Shown: positions 4,620 to 28,947, counted from the first letter of the stretch. The stretch is DNA of 37,399 bases from an uncultured archaeon (GCA_964366355.1 CAYITO010000003.1:1-37399), one strand, 5' to 3'. Numbers and translations: made by a program. The notes: a model not told the origin generated them from the sequence alone.

Positions 4620-4680
4620 GATTATAATGAAAAATATACATTTTTAAACTACGAAAAGAAACTATACCTGAGGCTGACAA

Positions 4681-5334: not shown

Positions 5335-5352
5335 TAATTTAAATTACTTAGT

Positions 5353-11497: not shown

Positions 11498-11577
11498 GTG
11501 ATAAGTTTTTTGTCAATCTCTAAAATAATTCTATCACTATTTAAAAAATAATTAACTAGATTAACTATAAGATAATT

Positions 11578-14010: not shown

Positions 14011-14019
14011 AGCCCATTA

Positions 14020-15234
14020 ATGGTATTTCTAATGGCTCGCAAATCCAGAAACAACGCAGTAAACCTATGGAATTTCATTTTTGTTCTTATAATTATGCTG
14101 ATTGTATTTCTAGCTTTTCCAATGAACCAAAAAACTAATTCAAAGGAATCGGCTTCAAAGGATGGTATAAAAGAATTGACAGCATCGGGCGTCTTAGATA
14201 TATTTGAATGTGGAAGCAACGAAACCTGCATGGATAACGTCTCAGAATTGTTGCTAAAAACAAGAAATGCAAAAGAACTTTTGGCTGAACTGGATGAATC
14301 GGGAAAGAAAGACAGTAGAATATTGATACAATGCCATCCAATTACCCATTCTGTAGGAAGAACTTTATACAAAAAATTATTGGAAGAAAATAAACATATT
14401 GCAGATGTGTTCCAGCAATGCGACCACACATGCCACTCTGGTTGCTTTCATGGCGCGATGGAAAGGGTGTTTTTTTCTGATGGATCATCTGATGGAGAGG
14501 ATCATGTAACACCCCAGATACTTAGAGAAAAAGTGCCGAGTGTTTGCGAGGGTTTTGATCAGGGACTGTCTGGAAATTTAAGATTTCAATGCTTGCATGG
14601 TTTGGGCCATGCAGTTGTTTTCTTCAACGATTATAATCTGATAGATTCTTTGAAATTGTGCGACTTGCTTCCAACCGATTGGGACAGATCTTCATGCCAT
14701 GGTGGAGCTTTCATGGAAAATGTCGTTGCCTCAAACAAAAGCAAAAGATTAGTAAGTAATGATCCGCATTTTCCCTGCAATATGCTGGAAGAAAAATACA
14801 AGAATTCTTGTTACCTTATGCAGACCAGCAGGATGCTTGAATTGGGCTTATCATATGAAAAGATAGGAAAAGAGTGTGAAAATGTTGAGAGTTACAGAAG
14901 CACTTGTATGATTAGTTTGGGTAGGGATGCTAGCAATGATGTCAGAAAGGATCCTAAATCTGCAAAAATTTGCATTGGTTTGCCGACTGAAAATGATAAT
15001 AAAAATTGCATAAGTGGCTTGGTTTATGCTTTGTCTGATAACTCGTGGGATGGTAGATACGCATTCCCCTATTGTGATGATCTGCCGGCTGATTATATTG
15101 ACTACTGTTATAAAACTACAATAGCTTATCTTATGCATTCACTCTTCATAGATAAAACAGCTCTCATAAAAAGTTGCCAAGCTCATTCATCTTATTATGA
15201 TTGTATAAATACTGTAAATAACTGGGCAAGCTAG
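14020..15234 (+). CDS. Secreted or membrane-anchored protein with one copy of the same Cys/His-rich module
   Basis: 404 aa with an N-terminal TM helix. CHPITHSVG, CDHTCHSGCFHG, FQCLHGLGHAVV and SSCHGGAFME are collinear with the two modules of 11578..14010. Confidence 0.8.
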   Translation: MVFLMARKSRNNAVNLWNFIFVLIIMLIVFLAFPMNQKTNSKESASKDGIKELTASGVLDIFECGSNETCMDNVSELLLKTRNAKELLAELDESGKKDSRILIQCHPITHSVGRTLYKKLLEENKHIADVFQQCDHTCHSGCFHGAMERVFFSDGSSDGEDHVTPQILREKVPSVCEGFDQGLSGNLRFQCLHGLGHAVVFFNDYNLIDSLKLCDLLPTDWDRSSCHGGAFMENVVASNKSKRLVSNDPHFPCNMLEEKYKNSCYLMQTSRMLELGLSYEKIGKECENVESYRSTCMISLGRDASNDVRKDPKSAKICIGLPTENDNKNCISGLVYALSDNSWDGRYAFPYCDDLPADYIDYCYKTTIAYLMHSLFIDKTALIKSCQAHSSYYDCINTVNNWAS

Positions 15235-15944: not shown

Positions 15945-16652
15945 CTATTTCGAAGAACTATGTTTTTTTATGAACAGGTCCTTGAAAAATTCTTCCTGCT
16001 CAGTTGCAATCTTTTTGCTTTGCTCTAGATGCAAAAGCGGCACCAAATGAGCTACTATCTTGTCCCTCTTCCAATCCTTTACGATTTCTTTGAATTCCAG
16101 TTTATCCTTGTTCAATCTAACCATCAACTCATCTATATTCTTCATTAATTTTTCAATCCTTATCTCTATATCCTCCTCATGCGTTACCACTGCATTCTGC
16201 AATTTCTCCTGCCACAATTGTCTCCTTTCAGTCTTCTTCTTTTCAACTGTCAATGCCTTCCTCAACGCATCCATTAGTTCATCCAAGGTAATCTGCCTTT
16301 TTGGAATTCTTTTCATCGGATAGCCAAGCTGAATCAACTTCGGATCTATCCCAAGTTCTTCAAATGGCTTAGGCTCCTTTGACATCTCATCAACATCCTC
16401 TTCATTCTCTGTAAAAATTGACAAATAATCCGACTTCAATCTCAGCAAAATTGCAGCAACGAAAACTATCTTTGCAGGAATCCTGAAATCAAGATCCTTG
16501 ACTGCATTGATGAATTTCAGGAAACTTTCGCTTAGTTTTGTCAAATCAATATTCCAAGGGTCTATGTTCTGGACATTTACAATATAGTAGATTATCTCCT
16601 CCCAATTTTCCTTTTCAACAATCATCTTCAATATGTTTTCTTCTTCTGTCAT
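15945..16652 (-). CDS. scpA: Segregation and condensation protein A (kleisin)
   Basis: ILKMIVEKENWEEIIYYIVNVQNIDPWNIDLTKLSESFLKFI...RIPAKIVFVAAILLRLKS. I place the start at ATG 16652-16650, which forms an ATGA overlap with the smc stop, rather than at the track start 16706. Confidence 0.85.
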   Translation of the reverse strand: MTEEENILKMIVEKENWEEIIYYIVNVQNIDPWNIDLTKLSESFLKFINAVKDLDFRIPAKIVFVAAILLRLKSDYLSIFTENEEDVDEMSKEPKPFEELGIDPKLIQLGYPMKRIPKRQITLDELMDALRKALTVEKKKTERRQLWQEKLQNAVVTHEEDIEIRIEKLMKNIDELMVRLNKDKLEFKEIVKDWKRDKIVAHLVPLLHLEQSKKIATEQEEFFKDLFIKKHSSSK

Positions 16653-19153
16653 TTGGACGGCATCTCCAAGCCAATAATCTTTGTCTCCGCCCTGTCCATT
16701 GTGCATCCGTATACTCTGTCACCAGATTTTATTGTCTGGTCGTTGTGAGTGATCATAATAAATTGCTCAGACTTTGACAATGATTTCACCAGCTCCGCAA
16801 GCTTCAAGCTATTTTCCTTGTCCAATGCGGCGTCAACTTCATCGAACATGTAGAATGGTGCAGGCTTGAATTTTTGTATTGCGAACAGGAATGCCAATGC
16901 AGCCAGAGTTTTCTCCCCTCCAGACATCGAATCTATGTTCAACAGCTTTTTGCCGGCAGGATTGGCTTCGATGATAAGTCCTGATTCTATATCCGCTGGA
17001 TTCTCCATTTCAAGTCTTGCAGTACCATGGGTCATCTTCTGATAGATTTCGTTGAAATTATTTCCAACTTCTGTCAAACACTTGTTGAAGACTCCCATTC
17101 TCCTTTGCTCAATCTGCTCTATCATGTCGATGACGGCCTTTTTCTCAATTAGTATCTTCTCATATTTCTCCTTGTATTGGTCAAACTCGCCTTTGAACTT
17201 CTCATATTCGCTTATAGCTTTCATATTAACCAGGCCTATTTCTTCAAGCTCCCTCTGCGTTTTCTTGATGAAATTCTCCAAAATGTGCAATTTCTCATCC
17301 ACATATTCTATTTGGCCATATTGTTGCAATTCGTTCTTTGCATTCTGCAATTCAGCCTCCAGCTTCGCCTTCTCTATGTTCGCAGTATTCAATTCTATCT
17401 CGAGATTGACTTTTCTTTCATGAGCTTTCCTCCTCTTCTGTCTCAATTCATCTACATCCCTTTCAGACGACACCCTCAATTTATCCAAGTCTATAAGTTC
17501 TTTCGTAGTTTCAGAAACAGCGTATTCCTTCAATTTTTTCTCAAGTGCAAATATCTCCTGCCTGACTGATACGATTTCCTGCTCTAACTCCTTTCTTCGT
17601 GCAGTGTAAGTTTCTATTTCTTTGCCGGTAGTGGTTTCAACAAATTTAGGATGAGATTTAATATAATAACCGCCTATCATGGCCCCAGAGCGCTCCACCA
17701 AATCCCCGTCCAAAGTAACCATTCGAGCTTTGCCTATTCCTATAATTTTGGCAGATTCCAAGTTTTCTATTACAAGTGTATTCCCAAAAACAAATTCTAT
17801 TGCGGACATGAACTTGCTGTCATATTTTATTAATTTGCTTGCAACATTGACGACGCCATTCTTTCCCAGAAGCCCATTGTCTCTAAATAGCATTGGTCTT
17901 ATTTTGTTCAAAGGCAGGAAAGTAGCTCTTCCAATTCTTTCTCTCTTCAGGTAATCTATGCAATAGCTGGCAACATTCTCGTCCTCAACAACTATGTCAT
18001 GCAAATGGCGTCCTGCGGCAACTTCTATCGCAATCCTATAGTTCTCAGGGACAGAAATCAAATTCGCTACAGTTCCCACCACTCCCCTCAAATTTAATCT
18101 CAAGACAGCCTGCACAGATCTCGGCATTTCCCCCGACAATTCAACCTTTCTTGATTCCAAAGCTCCAAGCTTTTCTACAAGGTTGTTTATCCTGTCAATC
18201 TCTCTTGCATCGGAGTCCATCTTGTCTTTTGCTATCATCAATTTCGAGCGTATCTCAGAAACTTCCTTTTCGATTTTAACCTTTTTTGATATTTCTATAA
18301 GCTTCCCAGCGACCTCCCTTATGCTCGACTCCCTTTTGTCAAGTTCAACTTCAATTTGGGCAATCTCCTCGTTTAGCTTTTTGTTCAAGTCCTCTTTCTT
18401 AACCAGGCTTTCTTCAATCCTTTTGATCTGGTCTTCGTATGTTGTTACTTTTTTATGTGCAAATGATGCCTTTAAAACAGTCAATTGGTTCTGCAAATTC
18501 TGAAACTTTATAGCAGCATTTCTTTCATCTTCCAATTTCTTGAAAATGTCATATCTTTGGTTGATTATTATTTCGGCTTCTTTCAATTTCTGGTCTACTG
18601 CATCCAAATCTTTCTGGGCTTTTTCCTTCTTGTCATTATATTCTGCAATTCCAGAAATCTCGTCTATGTAATAGCGTCTTTCAATAGGATTCATTTCAAT
18701 TATTTGTGTAACATCGCCCTGCAAAATTATGTTGTGACCATCTGGGTGTATTCTAGCCGAAGATAACAGTTCAAGGATTTTTTCTCTAGTAGTGGTTTTG
18801 CTGTTGATCTTGTATACAGATAGCCCATTCTTGCTGATTTTTCTAGTTATTGCAATCTCATTATCCTCAAAAGGGAATAGCTTCTGTGAATTATCCAGAT
18901 AAAGCGTTACCGCGGCGTATTCGGCAGCCGACTTGCCTTCCCCGCCATTGAAAATCAATTCATACAATCTATCTGCTCTTAAAGATTTAGCAGAAGATCT
19001 ACCCAATACAAACGCAATGGCATCCAAGATGTTTGATTTGCCCGAGCCGTTGGGACCGGCTATTACATTAAATCCTGGCAAAAATGGGATGGATATCTTC
19101 TTGTTGAAGCTCTTGAACCCCTGCAAAGTCATCCTGGTTATAGATGTGTTCAT
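16649..19153 (-). CDS. smc: SMC chromosome segregation ATPase, short-armed (834 aa)
   Basis: Walker A: GPNGSGKSN. Hinge: LRGVVGTVANLISVPENYRIAIEVAAGRHLHDIVVEDE...RATFLPLNKI. Signature plus Walker B: MSGGEKTLAALAFLFAIQKFKPAPFYMFDEVDAALD. Confidence 0.9.
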   Translation of the reverse strand: MNTSITRMTLQGFKSFNKKISIPFLPGFNVIAGPNGSGKSNILDAIAFVLGRSSAKSLRADRLYELIFNGGEGKSAAEYAAVTLYLDNSQKLFPFEDNEIAITRKISKNGLSVYKINSKTTTREKILELLSSARIHPDGHNIILQGDVTQIIEMNPIERRYYIDEISGIAEYNDKKEKAQKDLDAVDQKLKEAEIIINQRYDIFKKLEDERNAAIKFQNLQNQLTVLKASFAHKKVTTYEDQIKRIEESLVKKEDLNKKLNEEIAQIEVELDKRESSIREVAGKLIEISKKVKIEKEVSEIRSKLMIAKDKMDSDAREIDRINNLVEKLGALESRKVELSGEMPRSVQAVLRLNLRGVVGTVANLISVPENYRIAIEVAAGRHLHDIVVEDENVASYCIDYLKRERIGRATFLPLNKIRPMLFRDNGLLGKNGVVNVASKLIKYDSKFMSAIEFVFGNTLVIENLESAKIIGIGKARMVTLDGDLVERSGAMIGGYYIKSHPKFVETTTGKEIETYTARRKELEQEIVSVRQEIFALEKKLKEYAVSETTKELIDLDKLRVSSERDVDELRQKRRKAHERKVNLEIELNTANIEKAKLEAELQNAKNELQQYGQIEYVDEKLHILENFIKKTQRELEEIGLVNMKAISEYEKFKGEFDQYKEKYEKILIEKKAVIDMIEQIEQRRMGVFNKCLTEVGNNFNEIYQKMTHGTARLEMENPADIESGLIIEANPAGKKLLNIDSMSGGEKTLAALAFLFAIQKFKPAPFYMFDEVDAALDKENSLKLAELVKSLSKSEQFIMITHNDQTIKSGDRVYGCTMDRAETKIIGLEMPSK

Positions 19154-19372: not shown

Positions 19373-19642
19373 TTAAACGGTAAATATCCGCTTAAGGCTA
19401 TCCGGCACTTCAAAAACTTTCAGATGCAATCCAGCATCTGCATATGTCCAGCACATCACGGCAGCTTCGAAGGCTTGGATAAATTGTTTTTTGTCGTAGA
19501 AGTATTTGGCGTCTTCGAAATAGGAATTTATCAGATTCATGATGTTCTTGCCTTTCGAGTCTGCCAATTTCAAGCTTTTCAAGATAACTTCCACTTTGTC
19601 AATTTCCTTTTTTGCTAAAGATTCAATTTCCATAAGCTTCAT
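19373..19642 (-). CDS. DUF357-like archaeal protein
   Basis: 89 aa. YFEDAKYFYDKKQFIQAFEAAVMCWTYADAGLHL resembles the DUF357 pattern Y-x2-DA-x-F...A...YA-x-G-x-LDAG, recalled from memory. Confidence 0.6.
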   Translation of the reverse strand: MKLMEIESLAKKEIDKVEVILKSLKLADSKGKNIMNLINSYFEDAKYFYDKKQFIQAFEAAVMCWTYADAGLHLKVFEVPDSLKRIFTV

Positions 19643-19687
19643 TAAATTTTATTATTTTTAAGTAATTAAGAAACTAAAAATGCCGAG

Positions 19688-19782
19688 TGGGCCCAGTGGG
19701 ATTTGAACCCACGACACACTGGTTAAGAGCCAGCTGCTCTGCCATCCTGAGCTTTACCCACAACTTTAGTTGTTATGGGCCC
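19688..19782 (-). tRNA. tRNA-Lys(CUU): tRNA-Lys (anticodon CUU) with a ~21-nt non-canonical intron between the acceptor stem and the D stem
   Basis: Minus strand: GGGCCCA-TA-[ACAACTAAAGTTGTGGGTAAA]-GCTC AGGATGGCA GAGC A GCTGG CTCTTAA CCAGT GTGTC GTGGG TTCAAAT CCCAC TGGGCCC A. All four stems pair once the insert is removed. No encoded CCA. Confidence 0.85.
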
Positions 19783-19907
19783 TGAGCCCTTATCAAATTC
19801 GATAGTACCGCTAAATTTTCCTCCTTAACTATCATTATATTTTTTACTTTATCTAACTTCTTCAATGCAATATTAAAATTCTTGGAAGGTACTTAAAGCA
19901 TTTATTT

Positions 19908-20180
19908 TTATTCCTTGAACTTGGATAGAACATAGGTAAAGACGACTGCCAATGCCGTCATGAACATTGCTATGAGGAATTTATAGAATAATGTATCTTG
20001 GGTAGTAAGCGTACTTATCCAAGAGGTCCAGAAGCTATTCCAGCTTAACGCCACAACCAAACCCATCGCAGAAATGACAAGCGTCAGAAAGTTGGTTCTA
20101 AATGATTTTGTGAATTTTGACAACTCTGTATTGACGACGAGATTCCTTCTCTGATTTCTCCAATCGTTTATTTTTTTCAA
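19908..20180 (-). CDS. Small two-helix membrane protein (DUF5654-like pattern)
   Basis: 90 aa. LVISAMGLVVALSWNSFW plus a second TM helix FLIAMFMTALAVVFTYVL. Confidence 0.55.
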   Translation of the reverse strand: MKKINDWRNQRRNLVVNTELSKFTKSFRTNFLTLVISAMGLVVALSWNSFWTSWISTLTTQDTLFYKFLIAMFMTALAVVFTYVLSKFKE

Positions 20181-20306
20181 TACTATAAAAATCGCCTAGG
20201 AAGATTATTTAGTAGTTTAAGTATTAAAATTTTCCTTTACGAAATAAGGAAACTAATTTTGCCGTGTCTTTCAATAATCTGCCGAATTAAACTTTAATGC
20301 AATAAA

Positions 20307-20439
20307 TGGGCCTGGAGGGATTTGAACCCTCGACCAACTGGTGTCTTCCTATCATCTTGGAATCAAAGCTTTTACTTTTGATAAAAGCCAGCTGCTCTGC
20401 CATGCTTCGCCGTGATTTTATCACTTGAGCTACAGGCCC
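20307..20439 (-). tRNA. tRNA-Lys(UUU): tRNA-Lys (anticodon UUU) with two introns (~20 nt in the D-loop; 39 nt at canonical 37/38)
   Basis: Minus strand: GGGCCTG TA GCTCAAG[TGATAAAATCACGGCGAAGC]ATGGCAGAGC A GCTGG CTTTTA[TCAAAAGTAAAAGCTTTGATTCCAAGATGATAGGAAGAC]A CCAGT TGGTC GAGGG TTCAAAT CCCTC CAGGCCC A. Exact D-loop splice points are not resolvable by eye. Confidence 0.85.
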
Positions 20440-20480
20440 CTATATTTAATTTGTAGAAATACAATTATCTTTAATTGCTT

Positions 20481-20666
20481 TTAATGTTTTCTCATTCGCT
20501 GATAGTTCTTCCTCAGCCACGTATAGCTTCTTATTGTTGATTCCCTTCCATATCCGCATGCCGCACAATATTTCTTGTCTATTCTGTAGGACGTTCTGCC
20601 GCATCGCCTGCAGCGTATATGCGTTACTTTGTTCTTCCTGCCCATCGAAGGGGTTCCCTTTACCAT
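20481..20666 (-). CDS. rpl37e: Ribosomal protein eL37 (L37e)
   Basis: MVKGTPSMGRKNKVTHIRCRRCGRTSYRIDKKYCAACGYG, the eL37 zinc ribbon. Confidence 0.95.
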   Translation of the reverse strand: MVKGTPSMGRKNKVTHIRCRRCGRTSYRIDKKYCAACGYGRESTIRSYTWLRKNYQRMRKH

Positions 20667-20670
20667 CTAA

Positions 20671-21321
20671 TCACCTTTTCAACTGAAGATAAGACTTAGT
20701 AAAGACTGCAACAAACCACGGGAAAAGAAATATGTTGTAGAAGAAATCTGTAGCAGTAGTACTAAACAAATCTGTAACAGCCATAATTCCCCATGAAACC
20801 AATACCAATAAGATAAATAATGCAAAAATTCTCCACCAATTGCCTCTTGTTATGTTCCAACTAATTTTCAAAGATTCTAAAATACCTTTATTATTAAGTA
20901 AAACAGCAGGTTCATAATAAGATAATTTAATAAAAACAAATATTCCAGGCAAAATAAGTGCTACTAAACCAAGAAAGGTTAGGGCAAAACCTAGAATGGT
21001 GGCTAATAGTAATATCAAATATCTAGATGCAACTAAATTTGTAGCTGATATAAGGGAAACTTTCTTGCCTTTAGCAGATAAAACTGTCATGACGCCAGAT
21101 GTAAAAATACCAATTAAACTGATGGTTATAATTTTTAGAATATTAAGGGGAGAAAAGATGTCAAAAAAACTTGCATTAGACCCATTCGATATTGAAGTAG
21201 GAATATCGGGTTTTAGCAGAAATGATGCTATAGCATAGATTAAACCAATTAAAATTATGATCGGGGTTTCTTTTAACGCATTAAATCCATCAACAATAGC
21301 TTTCTTTATTTTCAGCTTCAT
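20671..21321 (-). CDS. Multi-pass membrane protein; function unknown
   Basis: 216 aa with 5-6 hydrophobic helices. Ends 4 nt upstream of rpl37e. Confidence 0.65.
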   Translation of the reverse strand: MKLKIKKAIVDGFNALKETPIIILIGLIYAIASFLLKPDIPTSISNGSNASFFDIFSPLNILKIITISLIGIFTSGVMTVLSAKGKKVSLISATNLVASRYLILLLATILGFALTFLGLVALILPGIFVFIKLSYYEPAVLLNNKGILESLKISWNITRGNWWRIFALFILLVLVSWGIMAVTDLFSTTATDFFYNIFLFPWFVAVFTKSYLQLKR

Positions 21322-21442
21322 AACGACTACAACTTGCTAGACTTGGACAGGAGATGCATAAACAATCGCCGCCGATGAAACTTGGGAATGCATACACGTG
21401 ATTTATGAGGCTAACTATTTAAAAGTTGCCCAAGTGGTTTGA

Positions 21443-21743
21443 ATGGATCATGACATATTCAGATGGGAAGTGAAGATGAATGCTACTCTCAAAAATATAC
21501 GCGAGTCTAGGGAATTGTCTGAGAGGAACAAGGAAATACTTCTGAAATTTTATGACTTTTGCGTGAGGCAGGAAATTACTAAAGGGAGGATTACAAGGGA
21601 CCTCTACGACTTGACAAGGAAATTACGACAAAGATAGTTGAAAAGGATGTTGTGAGGAAGGAAGCCGACAGCATTCTAGACAAATTATTGGAAGATGCAG
21701 AATTCAAGAAAATTTTCGTTTCAAAAGTGAAGAGGATGATAAG
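21443..21743 (+). pseudogene. Remnant of an archaeal tyrosine-recombinase (integrase) gene: N-terminal SAM-like segment, then a frame-shifted short tail
   Basis: The 64-aa ORF reads IRESRELSERNKEILLKFYDFCVRQEITKGRITRDLYDLTRKL. This resembles the N-terminal arm domain of archaeal phage-type integrases (S-x2-NK-x-hh-x-F-x-D-x-h...G-h-s-x-x-R-h...Y-h-x-x-L). A stop at 21635 is followed, in the +2 frame, by VEKDVVRKEADSILDKLLEDAEFKKIFVSKVKRMIR*. No catalytic domain is present. Confidence 0.45.
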
Positions 21744-22157
21744 ATGAGAAAATTAACTAAGATAGAAATAATTGCCGTAATGGTGCCTGTGTTAATCTGG
21801 TCTGTTGCTCTATATATGCTGTACGAGAATTACAGGTGCGATTACTGCCCGAAATATCCTGACCCTGAGTTGTACAATCTTGATGGTGAATGTAAGTTTT
21901 ATTCTTATGACAGATGCATCGCTTTATGCGAATTTACAAACATGGGGAAAAGGAATTTGACTGATATCAATCTGGATATAATTTACGATGTAAACCAGAC
22001 TGCTAGGCATGCAGAAGAATTATTACAGCCTAATGAAACAATTAAAGCTGATTTGGAAGTTCCTTGTAGAGATGATTATTTTATTTTTATCGCTTCTAAA
22101 GAAGCGTGGATTTTATATAAGCAAAATGCAGAATTAATAGAGAATGTGAATGACTGA
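21744..22157 (+). CDS. Small membrane-anchored Cys-rich protein; function unknown
   Basis: 137 aa. TM helix IIAVMVPVLIWSVALYMLY, then CDYC..C..C..C. Overlaps the next gene by 8 nt. Confidence 0.55.
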   Translation: MRKLTKIEIIAVMVPVLIWSVALYMLYENYRCDYCPKYPDPELYNLDGECKFYSYDRCIALCEFTNMGKRNLTDINLDIIYDVNQTARHAEELLQPNETIKADLEVPCRDDYFIFIASKEAWILYKQNAELIENVND

Positions 22158-22656
22158 AATAACTAAAGAAAGAGTATATCTTGATATAAACATCTTCCGT
22201 GAATGGTTCGTTAGAACAATTAAAGGCGATGCCACGCCCGTTTTCTATGTGGAATTTCTTTCTGAGCATACTGAAATTGAAAAACGCATATCAATTTTCA
22301 GCATTGCCGAACTGGTAGAGACTTTATTGAAAGAACCGGAACTGCAGGGATGGAAACTGACGAAAGAATGGATTTCCAGTTTAATAGAAATTTTCAAAGA
22401 CACTGTCAGCGCTAAAATAATAGAGGAAGATGAAGCCTACAAAGGCAAGTACAGAGGTTTTTATGTGTCGCCCAAAATTGTTGAATTCACTTATCTTTGC
22501 GGTGATCTGAAGGATTCTATTCATGTGGATATAGCAAGAACTAGCGATTTACTGTTAATTACAAAAGACGATAAAGTCGGTAGGGTTAAAGTTGTATATC
22601 CAAAGGTTGAAGGAATAAGAAGTTTAATAAGACGGTATGAAAAGAAAGAGAGGTAA
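22150..22656 (+). CDS. PIN-domain-like protein (possible VapC-type nuclease)
   Basis: 168 aa. Acidic residues are in the PIN order: VYLDINIF (D), SIAELVETL (E), IHVDIARTS (D), LLITKDDK (D). Confidence 0.45.
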   Translation: MTEITKERVYLDINIFREWFVRTIKGDATPVFYVEFLSEHTEIEKRISIFSIAELVETLLKEPELQGWKLTKEWISSLIEIFKDTVSAKIIEEDEAYKGKYRGFYVSPKIVEFTYLCGDLKDSIHVDIARTSDLLLITKDDKVGRVKVVYPKVEGIRSLIRRYEKKER

Positions 22657-22803
22657 CTATTTCTTTACCTGCTTGAATAATTCTATAAGTCTTCTAGTAC
22701 CTTCCTCATAAGACAGTTTTTTACCAGGAAGAACAACAGTAACATAACGACCGTTAAGCTTCTCCGTCACCCTCCTACCTCTTATTAAAGAGCTTCTTGG
22801 CAT
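22657..22803 (-). CDS. Possible 48-aa basic protein (below the ORF-track cutoff)
   Basis: Own translation: MPRSSLIRGRRVTEKLNGRYVTVVLPGKKLSYEEGTRRLIELFKQVKK*. It is convergent with the PIN-like gene and abuts it exactly. No recognisable family. Confidence 0.3.
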   Translation of the reverse strand: MPRSSLIRGRRVTEKLNGRYVTVVLPGKKLSYEEGTRRLIELFKQVKK

Positions 22804-22856
22804 ATTACTCAGTAAAATAATAGAACTTTTTTATATTTAAGTATTGATAGATAAAC

Positions 22857-23040
22857 GAACCCACTATCGCTAGTGGGTGAGCTTTCAAACCCAACCTTAG
22901 GTTACGTCTCTTGGAGACGGTTCCACAGGCGGTACGGCTCTAATAGAATAAGGGATATTGCCAAGGATGAAGATTTGCCCGGCATTGCCCACAGACGAGC
23001 TGTAGTGCCATACCGGGGAGCATATAATAATGCTATGGTT
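22857..23040 (+). ncRNA. Candidate structured RNA of unknown class (alternative: 56-codon GTG-initiated small ORF)
   Basis: A locally GC-rich (~50%) segment with no ORF of 60 aa or more. Perfect hairpins: CCCACTA-TCGC-TAGTGGG (22860-22877), CGTCTC-TTG-GAGACG (22905-22919), AGCAT-ATAATA-ATGCT (23019-23034). TATA-like tttttatatttaa at 22827-22840 lies ~25 nt upstream. T-run gattttttag at 23061-23070 lies downstream. Confidence 0.35.
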
Positions 23041-23119
23041 TAGAAGGGTTTATATGTTTTGATTTTTTAGGGTGGAACAATGCCTTTATGCTTTTCTTGA
23101 TAAATACTGATTGTAGAAT

Positions 23120-24586
23120 ATGATAAAACTCTCTTTCTTCGGCGGGGTGAATGAGATAGGAGGCAACAAAATACTCCTTGAAGCCGACGGAACAAAAATC
23201 TTCCTAGACTTCGGCATGAGCTTCAACAAGCACACAAGCTACTGGGCGGAGTACATGACGCCTCGGAAGCTCAACGGCATAAATGATTTCATAGAGTTCG
23301 GAATGTTGCCGAAGATTGACGGCATCTACAGGAAAGACTACCTGCAGCATACAGGAATGAAATATGAAGATACTCCTGCGGTCGATGGTGTTCTTTTGAG
23401 CCACGGCCACATGGACCATGTGGGCTATGTCCATTTCCTCAGGGATGATATCCCGATATTCTGCAGCGAGGCAACTAAGATGATAATGAAAGCTATTCAG
23501 GATGTGGGTGCAGGGACGTTTAATGATTTGGTCCAGATAGCTACCAGCTTCCAGTTCAAACCAAAGAAGGACGGTAAAGGCCATTCAAGGGTATATGGTG
23601 AGGAGTCCTACAAGGACAGACCTGTCAACACTTTCACTTTCGGCAAGAGATTCAAGATAGGCAATCTTGAGATAGAGCCTGTTCATATTGACCATTCATT
23701 GCCTGGTGCTACCGCATTTATCATCCACACTTCAGAAGGTGCTGTCGTCTATACCGGGGATATAAGATTTCACGGCAGGAGGGCTGAACTGAGCGAGAAG
23801 TTTATTGAATCCGCAAGGAAGGCAGAGCCTGAGATACTGATCAGCGAAGGCACGAGGATAATGGAGAAGGACTGGGAGACTGAGGAGGATGTTGAAAGGA
23901 AGGCTGGCGAAGTGGTGAAGAAGACCAAGGAGCTTGCCATAGTCAATTTTCCCGGAAGGGATACGGACAGGCTGATTACTTTCCTTAATGTCGCCAAAGC
24001 CACGGGAAGGAAGCTTGCGATAGAGTCGAGGATAGCATATCTCCTGGAACTATTGAAAGGCACTGATTCAATACATGTGCCGTCTGTTGATGATGACAGT
24101 ATCAGAATTTACATGATGAGGAAGGGATGGGGGTTGATAGACAGGGTGGATTTCCCTGACGAGATAAGGAAGGGCGATTATGAAAAGTGGGAGCAGAAGT
24201 ACATGGGACATGATAATTTGGTCACGTGGAAAGACGTCAGGGACAGCCAGAAGGATTTCATATTCTACTGCAACTTCTTCCAGCTGAAGGAGCTCATAGA
24301 TGTCAGGCCCAAGGAAGGGAGCAACTACATAAGGTCTCTTGTGGAGCCTTTCAGCGAGGATATGGAGCTGGATGAGAAGAGGGTGAACAACTGGATGAAG
24401 CATTTCGGGCTGTATCCGATGCATCAGATACATGCTTCAGGACATGCTCCTGGGACTGAGATTAAGAGGATGATAGCTGAGATGAAGCCGAAGAAAGTTA
24501 TACCTGTACATACACAACATCCTAAGGAATTTAAGAAGATTGTTGGGAAAGAGACTAAGGTGGAATTTGCTAAGTTAAACGTATAA
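23120..24586 (+). CDS. rnj: Beta-CASP metallo-beta-lactamase ribonuclease, archaeal RNase J-like
   Basis: 488 aa. MIKLSFFGGVNEIGGNKILLEADG, DFGMSF, HxHxDH motif LLSHGHMDHVGY, IDHSLPGA, C-terminal HASGHA and VIPVHTQHP. Confidence 0.8.
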   Translation: MIKLSFFGGVNEIGGNKILLEADGTKIFLDFGMSFNKHTSYWAEYMTPRKLNGINDFIEFGMLPKIDGIYRKDYLQHTGMKYEDTPAVDGVLLSHGHMDHVGYVHFLRDDIPIFCSEATKMIMKAIQDVGAGTFNDLVQIATSFQFKPKKDGKGHSRVYGEESYKDRPVNTFTFGKRFKIGNLEIEPVHIDHSLPGATAFIIHTSEGAVVYTGDIRFHGRRAELSEKFIESARKAEPEILISEGTRIMEKDWETEEDVERKAGEVVKKTKELAIVNFPGRDTDRLITFLNVAKATGRKLAIESRIAYLLELLKGTDSIHVPSVDDDSIRIYMMRKGWGLIDRVDFPDEIRKGDYEKWEQKYMGHDNLVTWKDVRDSQKDFIFYCNFFQLKELIDVRPKEGSNYIRSLVEPFSEDMELDEKRVNNWMKHFGLYPMHQIHASGHAPGTEIKRMIAEMKPKKVIPVHTQHPKEFKKIVGKETKVEFAKLNV

Positions 24587-24615
24587 ATTGTTATTGATTG
24601 TAGCCGGACTTCAAT

Positions 24616-26478
24616 CTAGTTCATCCTACTTTTGAAATAATCTCTAGTCTCCTTGTCAACAAAATAAACGTAGCATCCTTTCATCCCACGGGTCATAAGA
24701 GTTCTGTAAGTGTTTTTTATTATTGCATCCGCTTTTTTATCTGCACCCTTTGGATGCTCTTTAAAGTCCTTCTTATATCCATGCAAAGATTTGTCTGTTT
24801 TTGCACGTTTATTCGGAGAAGTCACTATTTTTCCATTTCTTACTACTAAGTCTGGACCTATGATCACACCAACATAATCGACTTCAAGACCTTGACAAGT
24901 ATGAATACATCCTACTTCACTTACAGATTTCGGTGAAATTATCCAAACGTTTCCATCACTTGCGAGATTCCATCTCATCTCAAAGTCATATTCTGGAATT
25001 ATAATATCTTTTAGATTCTTATTCTTCTTACTAATCCAGTCCCAACAATACCCTGCGACTAGTCGAGCTTTATTATTGATTTCATTTTTCTTGAAAATTA
25101 AATCTCGTAAGTCGTTAGGCGATTCAATAATTGTGAAATCATATTTTATTCCTTCCAATGTCGTATTTGCCGTTTCTCTTATTTGGAGTGTGTTATCGAG
25201 CCATGCCAAATACCCATCTGAGCCATTACAACGAAATTGTGATTCTAGCTTTAGAGTCTGAACTTTTGCACCAATTTTATCAGCCCATTTCTCAATTTCT
25301 TCTTTTTCACCAATATCATCCCAGGTAACTTTTTGGTTTTCATCAATGAAAAATATCGAAGACTTTGATGCTTCAATTATTTCCTTTATCTGGTTTTCTC
25401 CTATATTCTTGAACATACCTGATTTTTCATTAAGTCTATGTGCTTCGTCTACTATAAGAGAATCAAAAGTATTAGTTTTACAATTTACAAAAGAGCCTGA
25501 GCTAGTAAACATGTTTGAAAACTGGGTTTTTCTAAGCGTACCAGTGAGTTTGCTTTCAAAGACTGCTCTAGGTGCAGAGTTTTTCGTAACATATCGGGTA
25601 TTTAATCCGAGTTTAGTAATTGCAACAAGCAAATTAATTGCTATTACTGATTTTCCAGTCCCGGGTCCTCCTTCTACAATTAAAACATTTTTATTGGTAT
25701 TACTAGATCTTTTTGCTAAAGCTAATGCAGTTTCATAGACTATTTTTTGATCGTCAATTAGAACAAACTCTTGATTTCCTTTAAGCATAGACGACAGACT
25801 ATCAGCAAGGTCTTTTGAAGGTCTTATTTCGCTGTTTTCAATTCTATAAAGAGTATTTCTCTTATCTCCAAATTTTACGTATTTAGCAATAAATTCTTGC
25901 AACTTTGATTTTTCACCTTTGCAGAAAACTGGTGCCTTTTGTAAATAATCGAAATAGAAAGTATTTCTAATGACATTGTTTTCAACATAATTGTGCAAAT
26001 ATGCACATGGTTCTAAACCTATTTTTCCTTCGTATACAATTACATTGAATCCTTGAAGTAGAGTTGAATAAGACCATGCTTGATATGATGGATGAAGTGC
26101 CTCGCTTGGTCCACGTTTAAAGTGAGTTAGAACCATTGCATCTTTTTCTGTGAGTTGAATGTCGGTCCATTGTTTTAGTTCGATAATTATAACTTTTTCT
26201 TGATGGTTTTCATCTTCTCCTGTAACGATAAAATCGATTCTGTTTTTTGTTCTTGCAATGGAATATTCAATAGCCACACCCGAATCGTCAGGTATCATAT
26301 TTGTATTCATTACATGATACATTGCATTACCAATAGAATTTGCCCAAGATTCATATTCAGAACTCCCAGGTTTCAAGTCTATATTTAATTTTTCTTTTAC
26401 ATATTCTCTAATTTTGTCTTCTATTCCGTTGGAAGCATCTTCTAGAAAACCAGTTTTTGTTGCTTTATAAACTATCAT
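24616..26478 (-). CDS. DUF2075-type P-loop helicase-like ATPase with N-terminal PD-(D/E)xK-like nuclease module
   Basis: Walker A: VLIVEGGPGTGKSVIAINLL. Walker B: SLIVDEAHRL. SF1 motif-VI-like CIHTCQGLEVDYVGVIIG. DUF2075-type tail YRTLMTRGMKGCYVYFVD. N-terminal D...E-x-K in RIDFIVTGEDENHQEKVIIIELKQW. I place the start at ATG 26478-26476 (MIVYKATK), 1 nt after the upstream stop; the track start is 26511. Confidence 0.8.
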   Translation of the reverse strand: MIVYKATKTGFLEDASNGIEDKIREYVKEKLNIDLKPGSSEYESWANSIGNAMYHVMNTNMIPDDSGVAIEYSIARTKNRIDFIVTGEDENHQEKVIIIELKQWTDIQLTEKDAMVLTHFKRGPSEALHPSYQAWSYSTLLQGFNVIVYEGKIGLEPCAYLHNYVENNVIRNTFYFDYLQKAPVFCKGEKSKLQEFIAKYVKFGDKRNTLYRIENSEIRPSKDLADSLSSMLKGNQEFVLIDDQKIVYETALALAKRSSNTNKNVLIVEGGPGTGKSVIAINLLVAITKLGLNTRYVTKNSAPRAVFESKLTGTLRKTQFSNMFTSSGSFVNCKTNTFDSLIVDEAHRLNEKSGMFKNIGENQIKEIIEASKSSIFFIDENQKVTWDDIGEKEEIEKWADKIGAKVQTLKLESQFRCNGSDGYLAWLDNTLQIRETANTTLEGIKYDFTIIESPNDLRDLIFKKNEINNKARLVAGYCWDWISKKNKNLKDIIIPEYDFEMRWNLASDGNVWIISPKSVSEVGCIHTCQGLEVDYVGVIIGPDLVVRNGKIVTSPNKRAKTDKSLHGYKKDFKEHPKGADKKADAIIKNTYRTLMTRGMKGCYVYFVDKETRDYFKSRMN

Positions 26479-26479
26479 T

Positions 26480-26842
26480 TTAAATCCCATTATACTTTTT
26501 GTTTGACCCACGTGTTTTACTAGCAGGATATTTTAAGTCGTTTTTCTTCATTTTTTTCTCAAATTCTATTGATAAGTCTATGTTATTCATTTGAGCCAAC
26601 CTCAATAGGAAATACAAAATATCTGCCATTTCTTCTGATATCTCCATTTTTTTATCAGGCTTTTCAAGCATTTCTTTAATTTGGTCCTGTGATTTGAACC
26701 TGAAATGTTCCAATAATTCAGATGATTCTGTTATTATGCCTATGGCCAAGTCCTTCGCATTGTGATACTGGTTCCAATCACGGTCTTCACAGAATTTCTT
26801 TACAGCATCCTTTAGTTCTTGTATAGTAGTTTGGGAGTCCAT
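26480..26842 (-). CDS. All-alpha NTP pyrophosphohydrolase, MazG / DCTPP1 (RS21-C6)-like
   Basis: 120 aa. FCEDRDWNQYHNAKDLAIGIITESSELLEHFRFKS follows the DCTPP1/MazG-like pattern F-x2-eRdW-x-qfH-x-p-x-nL...E-x-gEL-x-E-x-FqWk. Second metal-binding helix: EEMADILYFLLRLA. Confidence 0.75.
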   Translation of the reverse strand: MDSQTTIQELKDAVKKFCEDRDWNQYHNAKDLAIGIITESSELLEHFRFKSQDQIKEMLEKPDKKMEISEEMADILYFLLRLAQMNNIDLSIEFEKKMKKNDLKYPASKTRGSNKKYNGI

Positions 26843-26892
26843 ATTTCAAGTATAGTTCTTAACTTTAAATTATTTCAGAATCAGATATAAAA

Positions 26893-27105
26893 ATGACCCA
26901 AATGGCAGGCGAATTCAAGAGAGACTACCTCCCTATAAACTCCATCAGCCTTCTGGGAAGCTGCGAGACAAAATTCCTACAATCAGCTTTAGGGGAGCTG
27001 GAAGTCACTCCAGTGATGCAGATAGGCAAGGAAAAGCACGCAGAACTGACAGAAGGCCTGCCCACAATCTCAATGAAGGAAACCATAAAAGAAAACGGGA
27101 CTTAA
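26893..27105 (+). CDS. Short GC-rich ORF, possibly a gene fragment; function unknown
   Basis: 70 aa, ~50% GC. LLGSCETKFLQSALGE...QIGKEKHAEL is faintly reminiscent of Cas4/RecB-type PD-(D/E)xK N-termini but is far too short to be a complete domain. Confidence 0.3.
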   Translation: MTQMAGEFKRDYLPINSISLLGSCETKFLQSALGELEVTPVMQIGKEKHAELTEGLPTISMKETIKENGT

Positions 27106-27302
27106 GTTCTGTATATTTGCGAGCCGAAGTTGAATTAAAATCTTGAATTTAGATAGTTATCCTGTTTGTCCAGTTATTTTATGCTTTTCGCTTTTTGCAA
27201 ATCAGCATCAGAATATCTCTTATGCCAACTAAATTTTTGAATATCTCCTTCCCAATGCAGAAAACCCTATACCACCCTTTCCAGAAATTCATTTTATAGC
27301 TT

Positions 27303-27527
27303 TTGGTGGGCTTTATGCGACAAAAGGGGCGATTAAAATTAACCGAAGGGGACAAGGAGTTCGTAAAAGACCTGTCTCGGAAGATTATTCTCAGAACCTA
27401 CGTAATGAATTCTGCCAGCAGACCGAGAACATTGCTGGGCAAGCTGAAAAGCCTCTTCTTTAAGAAATCCTACAAAGCACCTGTGTTGGATATATTGGAT
27501 GCTGTGGTAAAGCATCAGGGGAAGTGA
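27303..27527 (+). CDS. Hypothetical small basic protein
   Basis: 74 aa with a TTG start (ATG at codon 5). No recognisable motif. Confidence 0.3.
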   Translation: MVGFMRQKGRLKLTEGDKEFVKDLSRKIILRTYVMNSASRPRTLLGKLKSLFFKKSYKAPVLDILDAVVKHQGK

Positions 27528-27540
27528 TACTCTTGGGGTT

Positions 27541-27816
27541 ATGTTCTGTCCATTATGTGCGACTGCAATGAACTATGACGGATTTGAAGACATGTACAGA
27601 TGTGCCAAGACCGACTTTCACCCAAAGAGGAAGGTGGCGATTGTTGCTGGCGTGACTAAGTTCCAAGGCAGTGTCCTCCGGGAGAATGAGGACATCCACA
27701 AGTCGTTGGTGCTGGTCATACTTAAAGAATCCAGCAGGGGAAGCCATGACGTGATCAGAAGTTCCGAGGTGACGGTACGCACAAGGGTGGTTGATTTGAA
27801 GCTTGATACCGTTTAG
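27541..27816 (+). CDS. Hypothetical small protein with N-terminal CxxC...C zinc-ribbon-like motif
   Basis: 91 aa. A sampled 60-nt line is 53% GC. MFCPLCATAMNYDGFEDMYRC. Confidence 0.35.
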   Translation: MFCPLCATAMNYDGFEDMYRCAKTDFHPKRKVAIVAGVTKFQGSVLRENEDIHKSLVLVILKESSRGSHDVIRSSEVTVRTRVVDLKLDTV

Positions 27817-28245
27817 GAGCCCTGAAGAGAATACTTCTTTTAAATAGTTTTGTTATACCTTGGCTTTGTGGAAATAGTTCCTTATCAGGGAGTGAAAATT
27901 AAACAGAAAAACTAGTTTCAGCAAAATTTCCAACAGTTACGCCGATGGCTAATGTAGTCTGGAAGGCAGTGAAATTCCATGCTGCAGCAATTTACGTAAA
28001 GCGATTTATTTGGAACAGATAATTTTGCCATTTTATCAAATTTCTTATTTTTATCAAGTTCGTTAAATTCCAGATTCTTCAGAGCATTAGTTGTGATTGT
28101 GGGAAAGGGGCATTCCATAGAAATTACTTGATTTTGGATAAAAATAAGGTTTTCAGCGTATTTTAGATTAAGTGAAAAGCTGGCAAATTCGATTAATCTT
28201 TAAATATCAGGAAAACTACATAAAATTATAAATTTCGTGTATGTG

Positions 28246-28476
28246 TCACACGGTTACAGGACTAGCATAGACTATCGTATCGCCACGTACCAGAAGAGTC
28301 CCGAGTTTCAGCTTGTTTTCGCCGTTCTTCTTCACTTCAGCTTCGTCAATCCAAAGATTCAGATGCAAGTCGAGAGCCTTCAAAATGCCAGTGACCTCCT
28401 CGCCGTTCTTCAGTTTTATGATTATCTTCTTGCCTTTGGCTCTGTCTAGCGCGTCTATCGGCCTGTCTGTCATCAA
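28246..28476 (-). CDS. Sm-like archaeal protein (SmAP/LSm)
   Basis: 76 aa. Sm1 motif KIIIKLKNGEEVTGILKALDLHLNLWIDEAE and Sm2 motif LGTLLVRGDTIVYASP. Confidence 0.9.
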   Translation of the reverse strand: MMTDRPIDALDRAKGKKIIIKLKNGEEVTGILKALDLHLNLWIDEAEVKKNGENKLKLGTLLVRGDTIVYASPVTV

Positions 28477-28566
28477 TTCACTTCAGTTTATATTAGAGTA
28501 TGGTATTTAAGTGTTTTTTAATTTTGGTTATAAGAATATAAATACGGGCGGGAGTAACAATTTACT

Positions 28567-28947
28567 ATGGCTGTATGGCATGGGGAACGCGGAAGGACAC
28601 CGACAGGCGGAAAGATAGTTTCTACTCGGAAGAAAAGGAAGTATGAGCTGGGTTCTTTGCCGTTGCTCACAAAATTGGGAAGCGAAAAGCGAATCACAGT
28701 TATGGGGAAAGGCGGAAATAGCAAGGTCAAGGCAGCAAATGCGGAATTTGTCAATGTTGTTGATAAGAAGAGCAATATTGTGAAAAAAGTTAAAATTCTG
28801 GGCATTTTGGAAAATCCAGCCAACCTGCACTATGTTAGAAGGAACATTATTACAAAAGGAACTGTGGTAAATACCGAGATGGGAAAGGCAAAAATTACAT
28901 CGCGCCCGAGTCAGCACGGCGTGGTTAGCGGAATCTTAGTCGAATAA
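28567..28947 (+). CDS. rps8e: Ribosomal protein eS8 (S8e)
   Basis: 126 aa. GERGRTPTGGKIVSTRKKRKYELG...ENPANLHYVRRNIITKG...AKITSRPSQHGVVSGILVE. TATA-like aagaatataaatac lies ~25 nt upstream. Confidence 0.9.
   Translation: MAVWHGERGRTPTGGKIVSTRKKRKYELGSLPLLTKLGSEKRITVMGKGGNSKVKAANAEFVNVVDKKSNIVKKVKILGILENPANLHYVRRNIITKGTVVNTEMGKAKITSRPSQHGVVSGILVE

Follow-up and report, generated by a model that had tools for sequence, protein, structure and literature searches.

A probable relic of an integrated element at the 3' end of the Sm gene separates Sm from L37e in a groundwater Aenigmatarchaeota archaeon

The genes for Sm and ribosomal protein L37e of a groundwater DPANN archaeon of the Aenigmatarchaeota are 7.6 kb apart, probably because a 6.9-kb element was inserted into the last ten codons of Sm. 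With a probability of about 0.8, segment 21322-28245 of the DNA analysed here (37,399 nt, referred to as the window) is the fixed relic of an element integrated at the last ~10 Sm codons by a tyrosine recombinase. An Sm gene immediately upstream of rpl37e in the same orientation constitutes a conserved pair (PMC3710371). In the window, L37e (20481-20666; Pfam PF01907, E 3.5e-22) and Sm (SmAP/Lsm, 28246-28473) are both located on the minus strand, so the orientation is kept, and the immediate neighbourhood is lost: the Sm stop and the L37e start are separated by 7,579 nt. The Pfam LSM/Sm match (E 4e-18) was obtained for 28246-28476; public gene calls start Sm at the ATG at 28473.

The undisturbed locus is found in the two closest relatives, L006 (SMC 87% identical) and L008 (aRF1 89% identical), whose L37e is 87% identical to that of the window. 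Both have the order S8e|Sm, 12 nt, DUF7847, L37e, tRNA, which represents an empty, uninterrupted target site, and lack the island genes. From this compact arrangement, the insert could be delimited to 21322-28245. The proposal of the preliminary description that inserted DNA splits Sm and L37e is borne out, and the synteny comparison it called for gave two compact close relatives and a third, L010, with part of the arrangement. The expected direct adjacency proved half right: strand and order agree, but in this clade Sm was ancestrally followed by DUF7847 and not directly by L37e. The DUF7847 membrane protein gene (20671-21321, minus strand; PF25231, E 1.9e-8), whose stop is 4 nt from the L37e start, is, judged by gene order, the ancestral gene between the two; it was missing from the earlier list of intervening features. 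Among 46 informative Aenigmatarchaeota loci, the Sm-L37e gap is at most 200 nt in 20 and 0.2-3.5 kb in 16; in the remaining 10, no L37e lies within 10 kb of Sm. In the host flank, directly downstream of L37e and outside the island, an intron-bearing tRNA gene (20304..20439, minus strand) was recognized by eye from its tRNA-like acceptor and T-arm and a weak tmRNA/tRNA-clan match. ARAGORN missed it in the window, and many relatives have kept it beside L37e.

Both borders of the insert carry an Sm 3' end. The proximal att-like repeat comprises the last ten codons of the present Sm gene (IVYASPVTV*, 28246-28275, minus strand), apparently a replacement copy. The distal one (IVYASPVQV*, 21337-21366, minus strand) is an orphan at the place expected for the ancestral Sm stop, 15 nt before the start codon of DUF7847. 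The window has no third copy of the heptapeptide IVYASPV with its stop. With its QV ending, the orphan represents the ancestral type: it matches the genuine Sm end of L038 at 26 of 28 nt, and the spacer downstream of it and the DUF7847 start resemble those of L008. By comparison, the PVTV* end is common to the window and L010; in near relatives, the end reads PVQV* or PVQI*. These target-derived direct repeats share 8 of 9 residues and the stop, but are imperfect at the nucleotide level (about 19-20 of 28-30 nt identical, ~68%), too few for an exact att core to be named. Most of the differences between them are synonymous, among them an AGT/TCT switch at a serine, which indicates that both copies were once functional Sm ends in different lineages. 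Att-like repeats had been expected in the intergenic zones; the actual repeat sits within the Sm coding sequence. An element arm, 'seq A' (21367..21442), links the orphan core to the start of the integrase; the same groundwater community contains copies of it, ~88-90% identical, in other surroundings. The Sm-proximal end of the insert, 'seq B' (28193..28245), is 86% identical to the sequence following the Sm stop in L010. L010 has in common with the window the PVTV* end, the 53 nt that follow it and an RNase J gene in convergent orientation, which means that the insertion should predate the split of these two lineages.

At the distal border, ~75 nt from the orphan core, an internally deleted tyrosine integrase gene (21443-21747, plus strand) was detected by HMMER and tblastn, in agreement with the integrase remnant described before. 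It consists of the N-terminal 57 codons (21443-21613), a frame change and ~33 C-terminal codons (21646-21747). When aligned by tblastn with a Phage_integrase protein of 398 aa, 21443-21613 corresponds to residues 1-57 and 21646-21741 to residues 364-395. The deletion has removed about 300 codons from the middle of the gene, the entire PF00589 region among them, and the resident integrase has no intact R-K-H-R-H/W-Y catalytic domain. Because of this deletion, the island is to be regarded as a relic and not as an autonomous element. An exhaustive HMMER search against 1.84 billion representatives matched the remnant to the N-termini of P0242 (398 aa, E 4e-11) and P0246 (425 aa), which both carry PF00589 and a Zn ribbon; Pfam, NCBIfam, PADLOC and PHROGs yielded zero matches. 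The integrase stop overlaps the ATG of orf137 (ATGA; 21744..22157, plus strand), encoding a Cys-rich protein with a predicted N-terminal membrane helix and without a family match in the same four collections. In turn, orf137 overlaps by 8 nt a PIN-like gene (22150-22656, plus strand), whose only match, PF01850 (E 7e-4), is below the Pfam cut-off and which is absent from every related locus compared. Joined by overlapping start and stop codons, integrase, orf137 and PIN would likely have formed an operon of the element. A provirus was considered and rejected: Pfam found no virus hallmark genes (capsid, terminase, portal) in the window, PHROGs matched only MazG-type pyrophosphatase families and, weakly, helicase/ATPase-type families for the DUF2075 protein, and no relatives of the integrase were found in IMG/VR.

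Two further Aenigmatarchaeota contigs, L073 and L074, combine orphan Sm ends with intact integrases of this family. In L073, L37e is followed by an orphan AIVYASPVA*, 75 nt, an intact integrase and over 10 kb of cargo with, among others, restriction-modification, Mrr and Cas4-like genes. The core-to-integrase spacing is ~75 nt in both L073 and the window. Precomputed Pfam assignments of the L073 cargo genes contain no virus hallmark genes; the available DNA ends short of the Sm side of this element. L074 has three Sm-end copies, two orphans and the real one, which differ from each other in their synonymous codons and separate three genes of ~144 aa that are unrelated to one another. The same scaffold encodes an integrase of this family, and the link between Sm and integrase crosses a gap of Ns. 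In ~1 Mb searched in six frames, the Sm-end motif occurred away from true Sm ends only in the window, L073 and L074, all of them integrase-bearing. The pattern of orphan end plus integrase rests on these three loci. Together with a variant junction from the same community (see below), they support the Sm 3' end as a recurrent insertion hotspot in the phylum; that the site is a hotspot had been suggested from the window. Successive insertions, also suggested, are directly visible in L074 alone; the window has a single Sm-end repeat pair, so that just one site-specific insertion is demonstrable there.

The content of the island is mixed and would comprise, besides the element operon, an RNA-like gene, the lineage's own RNase J and a bacterial MazG/DUF2075 pair. 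The gene at 23120-24586 (plus strand) encodes a beta-CASP protein of the archaeal RNase J type with 488 aa (Lactamase_B_2, PF12706; RMMBL, PF07521), ~50% identical to proteins named ribonuclease J in DPANN and other archaea; the NCBIfam RNase J match is partial and below the cut-off. On the basis of its metallo-beta-lactamase/beta-CASP/RMMBL domains and its orthology, it is a predicted RNase J. It had been taken as foreign due to its high GC content. This does not hold: orthologue identities (85/84/80/78/73%) track species divergence, and in each of the relatives the gene exceeds its surroundings by 4-9 GC points, which argues for vertical inheritance and an intrinsically high GC content. Its genomic position differs in every close relative examined; in the window and L010, it is located within the Sm-end insert. 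GC mosaicism is therefore poor evidence of insertions. The island as a whole has 38.3% GC compared to 38.9% outside, and of the earlier hand counts only the 30-38% for the DUF2075 gene was confirmed (33.4%). The values for the RNase J gene (53-55%) and 27541-27816 (53%) were too high (46.4%, with a peak of 48.4% in a 500-nt window, and 48.9%), and 38% for purD and purF was too low (40.1% and 43.2%).

Upstream of the RNase J gene, at ~22857-23060 (plus strand), lies a structured-RNA-like segment composed of two modules, preceded by an AT-rich TATA-like stretch and followed by a T-run. No Rfam family matched it. L038 has a conserved copy of the 5' module; that of the 3' module is found in L007, between Sm and L37e. 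In both relatives, the orientation relative to Sm is opposite to that in the window. Four compensatory pairs and two G-U changes favour the plus strand.

The cassette on the minus strand consists of a MazG-like gene (26480-26842, PF12643) and a gene for a DUF2075/SLFN-type helicase (24616-26511, PF09848, E 5e-108). Protein clusters with 74-82% identity number more than 120 and include Patescibacteria. The pair is also present in L068-L070. At the nucleotide level, 75% identity extends over 2.2 kb in L068/L069 and, for DUF2075 only, over 1.85 kb in L070; the matching contigs look bacterial (Patescibacteria-type). Its sequence thus marks the cassette as foreign, as the preliminary description had proposed, and as of bacterial type. 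It is a candidate defence module: the DUF2075 SF1 helicase core partially matches PADLOC models of Nhi/AbiO/PDC-S41 (E 1e-11 to 1e-15), and a D…ExK-like motif was read by eye in the N-terminal part. In many bacterial contigs, DUF2075 is likewise paired with a MazG-like pyrophosphatase. Many bacterial homologues are fused to a LexA-like Peptidase_S24, which the window protein lacks. To our knowledge, no defence phenotype is known for the DUF2075 (Schlafen group 3 helicase) family. The remaining part of the island (26893-28118) contains the small ORFs orf70, orf74 and orf91 (plus strand) and orf66 (minus strand). A 66%-identical homologue of orf74 is located near RNase J in L066; for the other three, homologues were absent among the 74 loci compared.

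The following history would account for these observations. A tyrosine recombinase would have acted site-specifically at a core within the last ~10 Sm codons. The element would have brought its own Sm C-terminal codons, so that after crossover the host Sm read into IVYASPVTV*, and the original end, IVYASPVQV*, was pushed to the far side, 15 nt before DUF7847-L37e. Later, the integrase, ~75 nt from the orphan end, would have lost its ~300 central codons, leaving an island no longer able to move itself. The junctions were presumably made by the recombination itself. RNase J and the bacterial cassette probably arrived by later rearrangement or insertion and not with the original element, and L37e would now be transcribed without Sm. 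Points against the integrated-element reading include the vertically inherited housekeeping RNase J, which is unusual as cargo and requires a second step, and the broken window integrase, whose role in making the junctions is deduced from sequence.

Assembly can be dealt with briefly. Contigs assembled independently (ENA, Logan) cover the whole island with both its junctions, and the depth across the island equals that of the flanks at a low coverage of ~3-7x: the arrangement is not an assembly artefact. That it is nonetheless ancestral and fixed, or a chimera of assembly or binning, might be argued from this low coverage and from the partial arrangement in L010, but is largely refuted and extremely improbable in view of the several tiling assemblies, the compact loci of L006 and L008 and the 20 of 46 loci with short gaps. 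Very improbable, too, is a chromosomal rearrangement without a mobile element, in which native DNA including RNase J came to lie between Sm and DUF7847, for example by a duplicative inversion or a translocation that broke within Sm and left a stub of it. It would fit the vertical inheritance of RNase J, the reversed orientation of the RNA-like modules compared to L007 and L038 and the various ordinary genes (e.g., purC, LemA, ABC-2) found in the Sm-L37e interval of other relatives. A local duplication, however, would not yield a stub and a working end that differ synonymously like alleles of different lineages, nor does it explain why the integrase remnant has the same ~75-nt distance to the stub as the intact integrase in L073 and why orphan Sm ends are confined to loci with this integrase family.

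Somewhat less unlikely, if still doubtful, is that the island or a close relative is mobile at present, with an integrase supplied in trans and circular or tandem forms coexisting with the integrated form in the groundwater population. A 347-nt contig from run X3 joins 28126-28249 (identical) to an Sm-end core and a copy of 21341-21477 with ~89% identity; the joint 28249>21341 is permuted to the order seqB-core-seqA, as in an attP-type or tandem arrangement, and run X1 contains the same variant continuation. Furthermore, the integrase-less single-gene units between the Sm-end repeats of L074 imply mobilisation in trans. Yet after 21477 the X3 contig ceases to match the window and runs on in unrelated DNA, where a stop follows within 6 codons; it hence represents another damaged copy, not a circle of the window island. 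In groundwater reads at ~5x depth, no empty-site or deletion joint was found, the island is as deep as its flanks, and the insertion is old, as it is common to L010, the flanks of which are ~75% identical in DNA. A fixed relic of an integrated element remains the preferred reading.

Such a relic belongs to a known kind, the archaeal elements integrated into the 3' end of protein genes. Of 68 thaumarchaeal integrated elements, 14 were reported to have entered protein-coding genes at their 3'-distal part (PMC6563490). Common features are a tyrosine integrase at one border, a short target duplication at both, restoration of the target 3' end by the element, relatives with an empty site and a cargo rich in restriction-modification and defence genes, the latter here in L073. 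In contrast, the target in the window is the Sm gene of the near-universal Sm-L37e pair, the host belongs to the DPANN archaea, the repeats retain only ~68% identity, the integrase is internally deleted, and a housekeeping RNase J and a bacterial-type cassette are found inside. The RNase J itself resembles other archaeal RNases J in domains, length and ~50% identity, but differs from that of close relatives in that the window and L010 genes sit inside an Sm-end insert. L074 is reminiscent of bacterial integrons, as unrelated single genes are each bounded by the same short site, with a family integrase beside the array, albeit across a scaffold gap. Integrons are defined by an IntI-type integrase next to attI, cassettes bounded by attC hairpins and a common (Pc-type) promoter; the likeness of L074 to them lies in its cassette-like layout. 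The repeated site in L074 is the end of a coding gene instead of a folded attC, and the window holds one large insert, not an array.

In nearly all archaea the Sm gene lies directly upstream of rpl37e, often with tRNA genes alongside, and the two form one of the most conserved archaeal gene pairs (PMC3710371). The split of this pair claimed in the preliminary description is real: Pfam confirms Sm (28246-28473) and L37e (20481-20666), both on the minus strand and separated by 7,579 nt. The L37e-side flank comprises purN-like, purD, purF, large surface proteins, ScpA/SMC, DUF357, DUF5654 and two intron-bearing tRNA genes. ORF 15945-16706 is a putative ScpA gene called by position alone: it overlaps the SMC start, and SMC_ScpA is found at the same place in L073, a 194-kb contig. 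The Sm-side flank carries S8e (divergent from Sm), TatD, a membrane protein, aRF1 with a LAGLIDADG intein and a class I tRNA synthetase. The window belongs to a DPANN archaeon of the phylum Aenigmatarchaeota, and its Sm protein is encoded identically on contigs of groundwater metagenome assemblies labelled Hain_H51_01um. Exact-protein look-ups with L37e and with Sm read from a TTG start returned no matches.

Synteny with relatives, a comparison suggested in the preliminary description, was surveyed by tblastn with the window proteins in 58 related loci from species-representative genomes, mostly labelled Aenigmatarchaeota. The two closest relatives, L006 (SMC 87% identical) and L008 (aRF1 89% identical), are both compact: the divergent S8e is followed by Sm, 12 nt, DUF7847, L37e, a tRNA gene, DUF5654 and, further on, SMC. 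None of the island genes was detected in these two loci with the same search. This means that the DUF7847 membrane gene is the ancestral Sm neighbour in the clade and that the inserted DNA spans 21322-28245, about 6.9 kb. Among 46 informative loci, the Sm-L37e gap amounts to at most 200 nt in 20, 201-1000 nt in 7 and 1-3.5 kb in 9, and in the remaining 10 L37e is absent within 10 kb of Sm. The larger gaps hold mutually unrelated genes (purC, GIDE and LemA, an ABC-2 permease, TFIIB-like, HAD-like). Genome JAWCME01 has two Sm genes on separate contigs (L019 and L026), only one of them linked to L37e, so that some loci without a nearby L37e may represent Sm paralogues. A third relative, the short contig L010, resembles the window but lacks MazG/DUF2075: Sm is followed by 53 conserved nt, an unrelated 232-aa gene and a convergent RNase J gene (88% identical). 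The reading of orf70, orf74 and orf91 as fragments of this 232-aa gene was ruled out, as they share no similarity with it.

When public contigs were mapped on the region, an odd joint, 28249>21341, was found, whose ends match the island limits defined by synteny. Its follow-up revealed a short similarity between the two island borders. On the minus strand, 21337-21366 translates as IVYASPVQV plus stop and is located 15 nt upstream of the DUF7847 ATG. The working Sm gene terminates with GDTIVYASPVTV and a stop. In near relatives the C-terminus of Sm reads PVQV or PVQI, the spacer and DUF7847 start in L008 resemble the sequence beside the orphan copy, and 26 of 28 nt of the orphan are identical to the true Sm end of the related locus L038. 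These three observations identify the orphan as the displaced ancestral Sm 3' end. The end of the working gene (PVTV plus stop) and the next 53 nt are common to the window and L010, and this terminus arrived with the insert. The Sm-end copies differ chiefly at synonymous positions (ATA/ATT, GTC/GTT, GCT/GCA, AGT/TCT, GTA/GTC, TGA/TAG), as expected if the copies served as genuine Sm ends in separate lineages. Duplication within the locus and subsequent decay would not be expected to leave this pattern. A third Sm-end copy was not found in the window. The att-like border repeats for which a search had been proposed came to light in one way only: a generic search of 19600-28700 yielded merely chance-level matches of 14-16 nt, but the contig joint together with translation revealed the duplicated Sm 3' end. 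A possible inverted repeat between 21367-21442, which reaches from the orphan to the integrase start, and the 3' flank of Sm in L007 and the window was dismissed because the similarity is too weak (E 0.1-0.35).

The 64-aa ORF at 21443-21637 found no match in Pfam, NCBIfam, PADLOC or PHROGs, and a different Aenigmatarchaeota integrase, from locus L066, did not match the remnant in tblastn. An exhaustive HMMER search against 1.84 billion representatives aligned the ORF to residues 1-58 of a 398-aa protein (E 4e-11) and to roughly the first 50 of a 425-aa protein. Both proteins contain a Phage_integrase domain and a C-terminal zinc ribbon. In another frame, 21646-21741 aligns in tblastn to residues 364-395 of the 398-aa integrase. 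As both integrase ends align, about 300 central codons, the catalytic domain included, have been lost. The integrase stop overlaps the start of orf137 (ATGA), and orf137 and the PIN-like gene share 8 nt; the three genes probably belonged to a single operon of the element. Neither the integrase alone nor the integrase alignment had a match in the viral collection. Locus L025, from another Aenigmatarchaeota genome, encodes two more distant integrase paralogues (11567-12571, plus strand; 13278-14480, minus strand; 32-36% identical) just downstream of its L37e-tRNA pair, and these may belong to elements targeting the tRNA gene.

The 398-aa integrase is located on L073, where SMC and L37e are followed by an orphan AIVYASPVA plus stop, 75 nt and the integrase gene. 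The cargo beyond it exceeds 10 kb and includes HTH, Mrr-like, MmeI-type restriction-modification and Cas4-like genes; this element is known from its L37e-side part, and its Sm end would lie outside the examined 21 kb. The 425-aa integrase is located on the 6.3-kb scaffold L074. Here, L37e shares one uninterrupted stretch with three unrelated genes, 143-145 aa in length. Copies of the Sm end reading IVYASPV plus stop flank each of the two genes nearer to Sm (143 and 144 aa); they are the orphans at 2871-2891 and 3450-3470 and the real end at 3995-4015. The third gene (145 aa) lies in the interval from the outer orphan to L37e. Synonymous codon usage differs among all three copies. The layout within 1467-5582 is reminiscent of an integron cassette array. 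The integrase is encoded on the same scaffold, across a run of Ns that makes the adjacency of Sm and integrase less certain. A six-frame search of about 1 Mb, allowing at most one substitution, located the heptapeptide IVYASPV at true Sm ends and otherwise only as orphans in the window, L073 and L074, which are precisely the loci with an integrase of this family.

Depth is even, at ~5x, over the island and both of its junctions, which are spanned by contigs from several runs. The joint 28249>21341 is present in a 347-nt contig (run X3; also X1), of which 124 nt are identical to 28126-28249. It continues with a third version of the core, a copy of 21341-21477 at ~89% identity and then unrelated sequence. 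Its order, with the Sm-proximal island end (28193-28245) followed by the core and the sequence next to the integrase, is of the attP or tandem type. A clean circle junction was considered for this joint and rejected after contigs had been mapped at 80% likeness. Its sequence indicates that the contig stems from another, likewise truncated copy, and it may represent a tandem or episomal form related to the island within this groundwater. Further contigs bear the segment 21338-21423 in other contexts. The variant joints and contexts show that the locus is polymorphic in the community, and excision of the window island was not observed. An empty-site joint was not seen in the public contigs at this depth.

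We assign a probability of roughly 80% to the reading that Sm and L37e were parted when an element integrated site-specifically into the Sm 3' end, with later inactivation of the integrase and turnover of the cargo. The element would have brought a replacement terminus, by which the ancestral end would be displaced to the DUF7847 side of the insert. The core of the earlier proposal, a mosaic island at an insertion hotspot, is upheld, unlike its reasoning from GC content. To our knowledge, mobile elements of DPANN archaea are almost undescribed. Integration of this kind is known in archaea: among 68 thaumarchaeal integrated elements, 14 occupy the 3'-distal part of a protein-coding gene (PMC6563490). 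The novelty lies in the target, the phylum of the host and the connection with the Sm-L37e pair; no mention of DPANN or Lsm was found in a review covering archaeal tyrosine recombinases (PMC8371274). The reading offers a concrete mechanism for a break in a highly conserved gene pair and identifies the Sm gene end as target of an integrase family in DPANN archaea. The orphan motif, with the degenerate core ATHGTNTAYGCNWSNCCNGT(N0-6)stop, provides a simple searchable marker for further such elements. A broader model is speculative and rather unlikely. According to it, the Aenigmatarchaeota Sm 3' end might be a dedicated capture site comparable to an integron attI, where one zinc-ribbon tyrosine integrase family repeatedly inserts large elements and single-gene cassettes. 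Each would bring a synonymous Sm C-terminus and push older inserts towards L37e, and RNase J-type housekeeping genes as well as defence cassettes shared with co-resident Patescibacteria would accumulate there.

The RNase J gene (23120-24586) had been regarded as foreign on account of its GC content. Its orthologues are 85, 84, 80, 78 and 73% identical, followed by ~50% across DPANN, and this ladder fits the divergence of other core proteins, which argues for a native gene. A metagenome scan with RNase J returned the same population and only one distant match. In 2-kb windows the gene deviates with z +2.4 for GC and z +3.8 for tetranucleotides. In every relative examined (L065, L066, L067, L071, L072), RNase J is 4-9 GC points above its surroundings, with a GC3 of 0.48-0.65; the deviation is therefore a property of the gene. 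Hand counts had also been too extreme, with 53-55% for RNase J (46.4%) and 53% for 27541-27816 (48.9%), and had put purD (40.1%) and purF (43.2%) at 38%; only the low GC of DUF2075 (33.4%) agreed. The most deviant gene is native and the island overall has the GC content of the genome, a caution for GC-based island-calling. RNase J has different neighbours in each relative examined, frequently restriction-modification, Fic, integrase or Cas4-like genes; in the L008 genome, it adjoins restriction-modification genes on another contig. In L066, a Cas4-like homologue and a 308-aa integrase gene are adjacent (1313-2941) and lie 6 kb upstream of RNase J, a hint that mobile DNA is close to this gene in L066 as well. 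The Cas4-like PD-(D/E)xK gene of the L073 element (17820-18479) is 55% identical to this homologue.

The MazG/DUF2075 pair is, by its sequence relationships, foreign. The DUF2075 protein matches >120 protein clusters at 74-82% identity, among them Kaiserbacteria, Parcubacteria, Minisyncoccota, Paceibacterota and Omnitrophica, many with a fused LexA-like peptidase domain. Many bacterial homologues (P0126, P0133-P0137 and others) comprise 765-803 aa with this added Peptidase_S24 domain, which the archaeal copy (24616-26511, minus strand) lacks. A D...ExK-like motif (IDFIV...IIIELKQW) in the N-terminal third of the window protein suggests a nuclease domain. The pair was also found on other contigs, including L070, which is marked as bacterial by its peptide deformylase gene. 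Nucleotide identity is 75% over 2.2 kb with L068/L069 and 75% over 1.85 kb with L070 (DUF2075 only), and the GC content of the cassette is the same (33.4% in the window versus 32.3%). The Nhi, AbiO and PDC-S41 helicase models of PADLOC were matched in part, which makes a role in defence plausible. In L066, the 80%-identical RNase J gene has a MazG gene (76% identical over 45 aa) on its opposite side and a homologue of orf74 in its vicinity, so that the cassette has probably been in the lineage for some time. Patescibacteria and DPANN archaea are ultra-small, episymbiotic lineages. The presence of a candidate defence cassette of Patescibacteria type in the genome of an archaeon of the same groundwater is relevant to gene flow between them.

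A GC-rich candidate for a structured RNA lies at 22857-23060 (plus strand), with a TATA-like stretch upstream and a T-run downstream. Rfam gave no match at gathering or relaxed thresholds, and no RNase P, SRP, C/D or H/ACA motifs were found by eye; the region did not turn up in any RNA-seq run. Its 5' half is kept only in L038 (11594-11719), 1.4 kb downstream of Sm, and its 3' half only in L007 (3253-3340), between Sm and L37e; relative to Sm, the window copy is inverted compared to both. Four compensatory pairs and two G-U changes favour the plus strand. The tRNA genes at 19688-19783 and 20304-20439 (both minus strand) have non-canonical or extra introns and are missed by ARAGORN. Rfam found the former and gave no more than a weak tRNA-clan match for the latter, which is kept directly downstream of L37e in many relatives. 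The aRF1 gene (30772-33177, minus strand) bears the intein with the LAGLIDADG domain. It aligns over its full length in L008, L028 and L051 and as two abutting pieces in most other relatives, which means that the intein is present in some lineages and absent in others.
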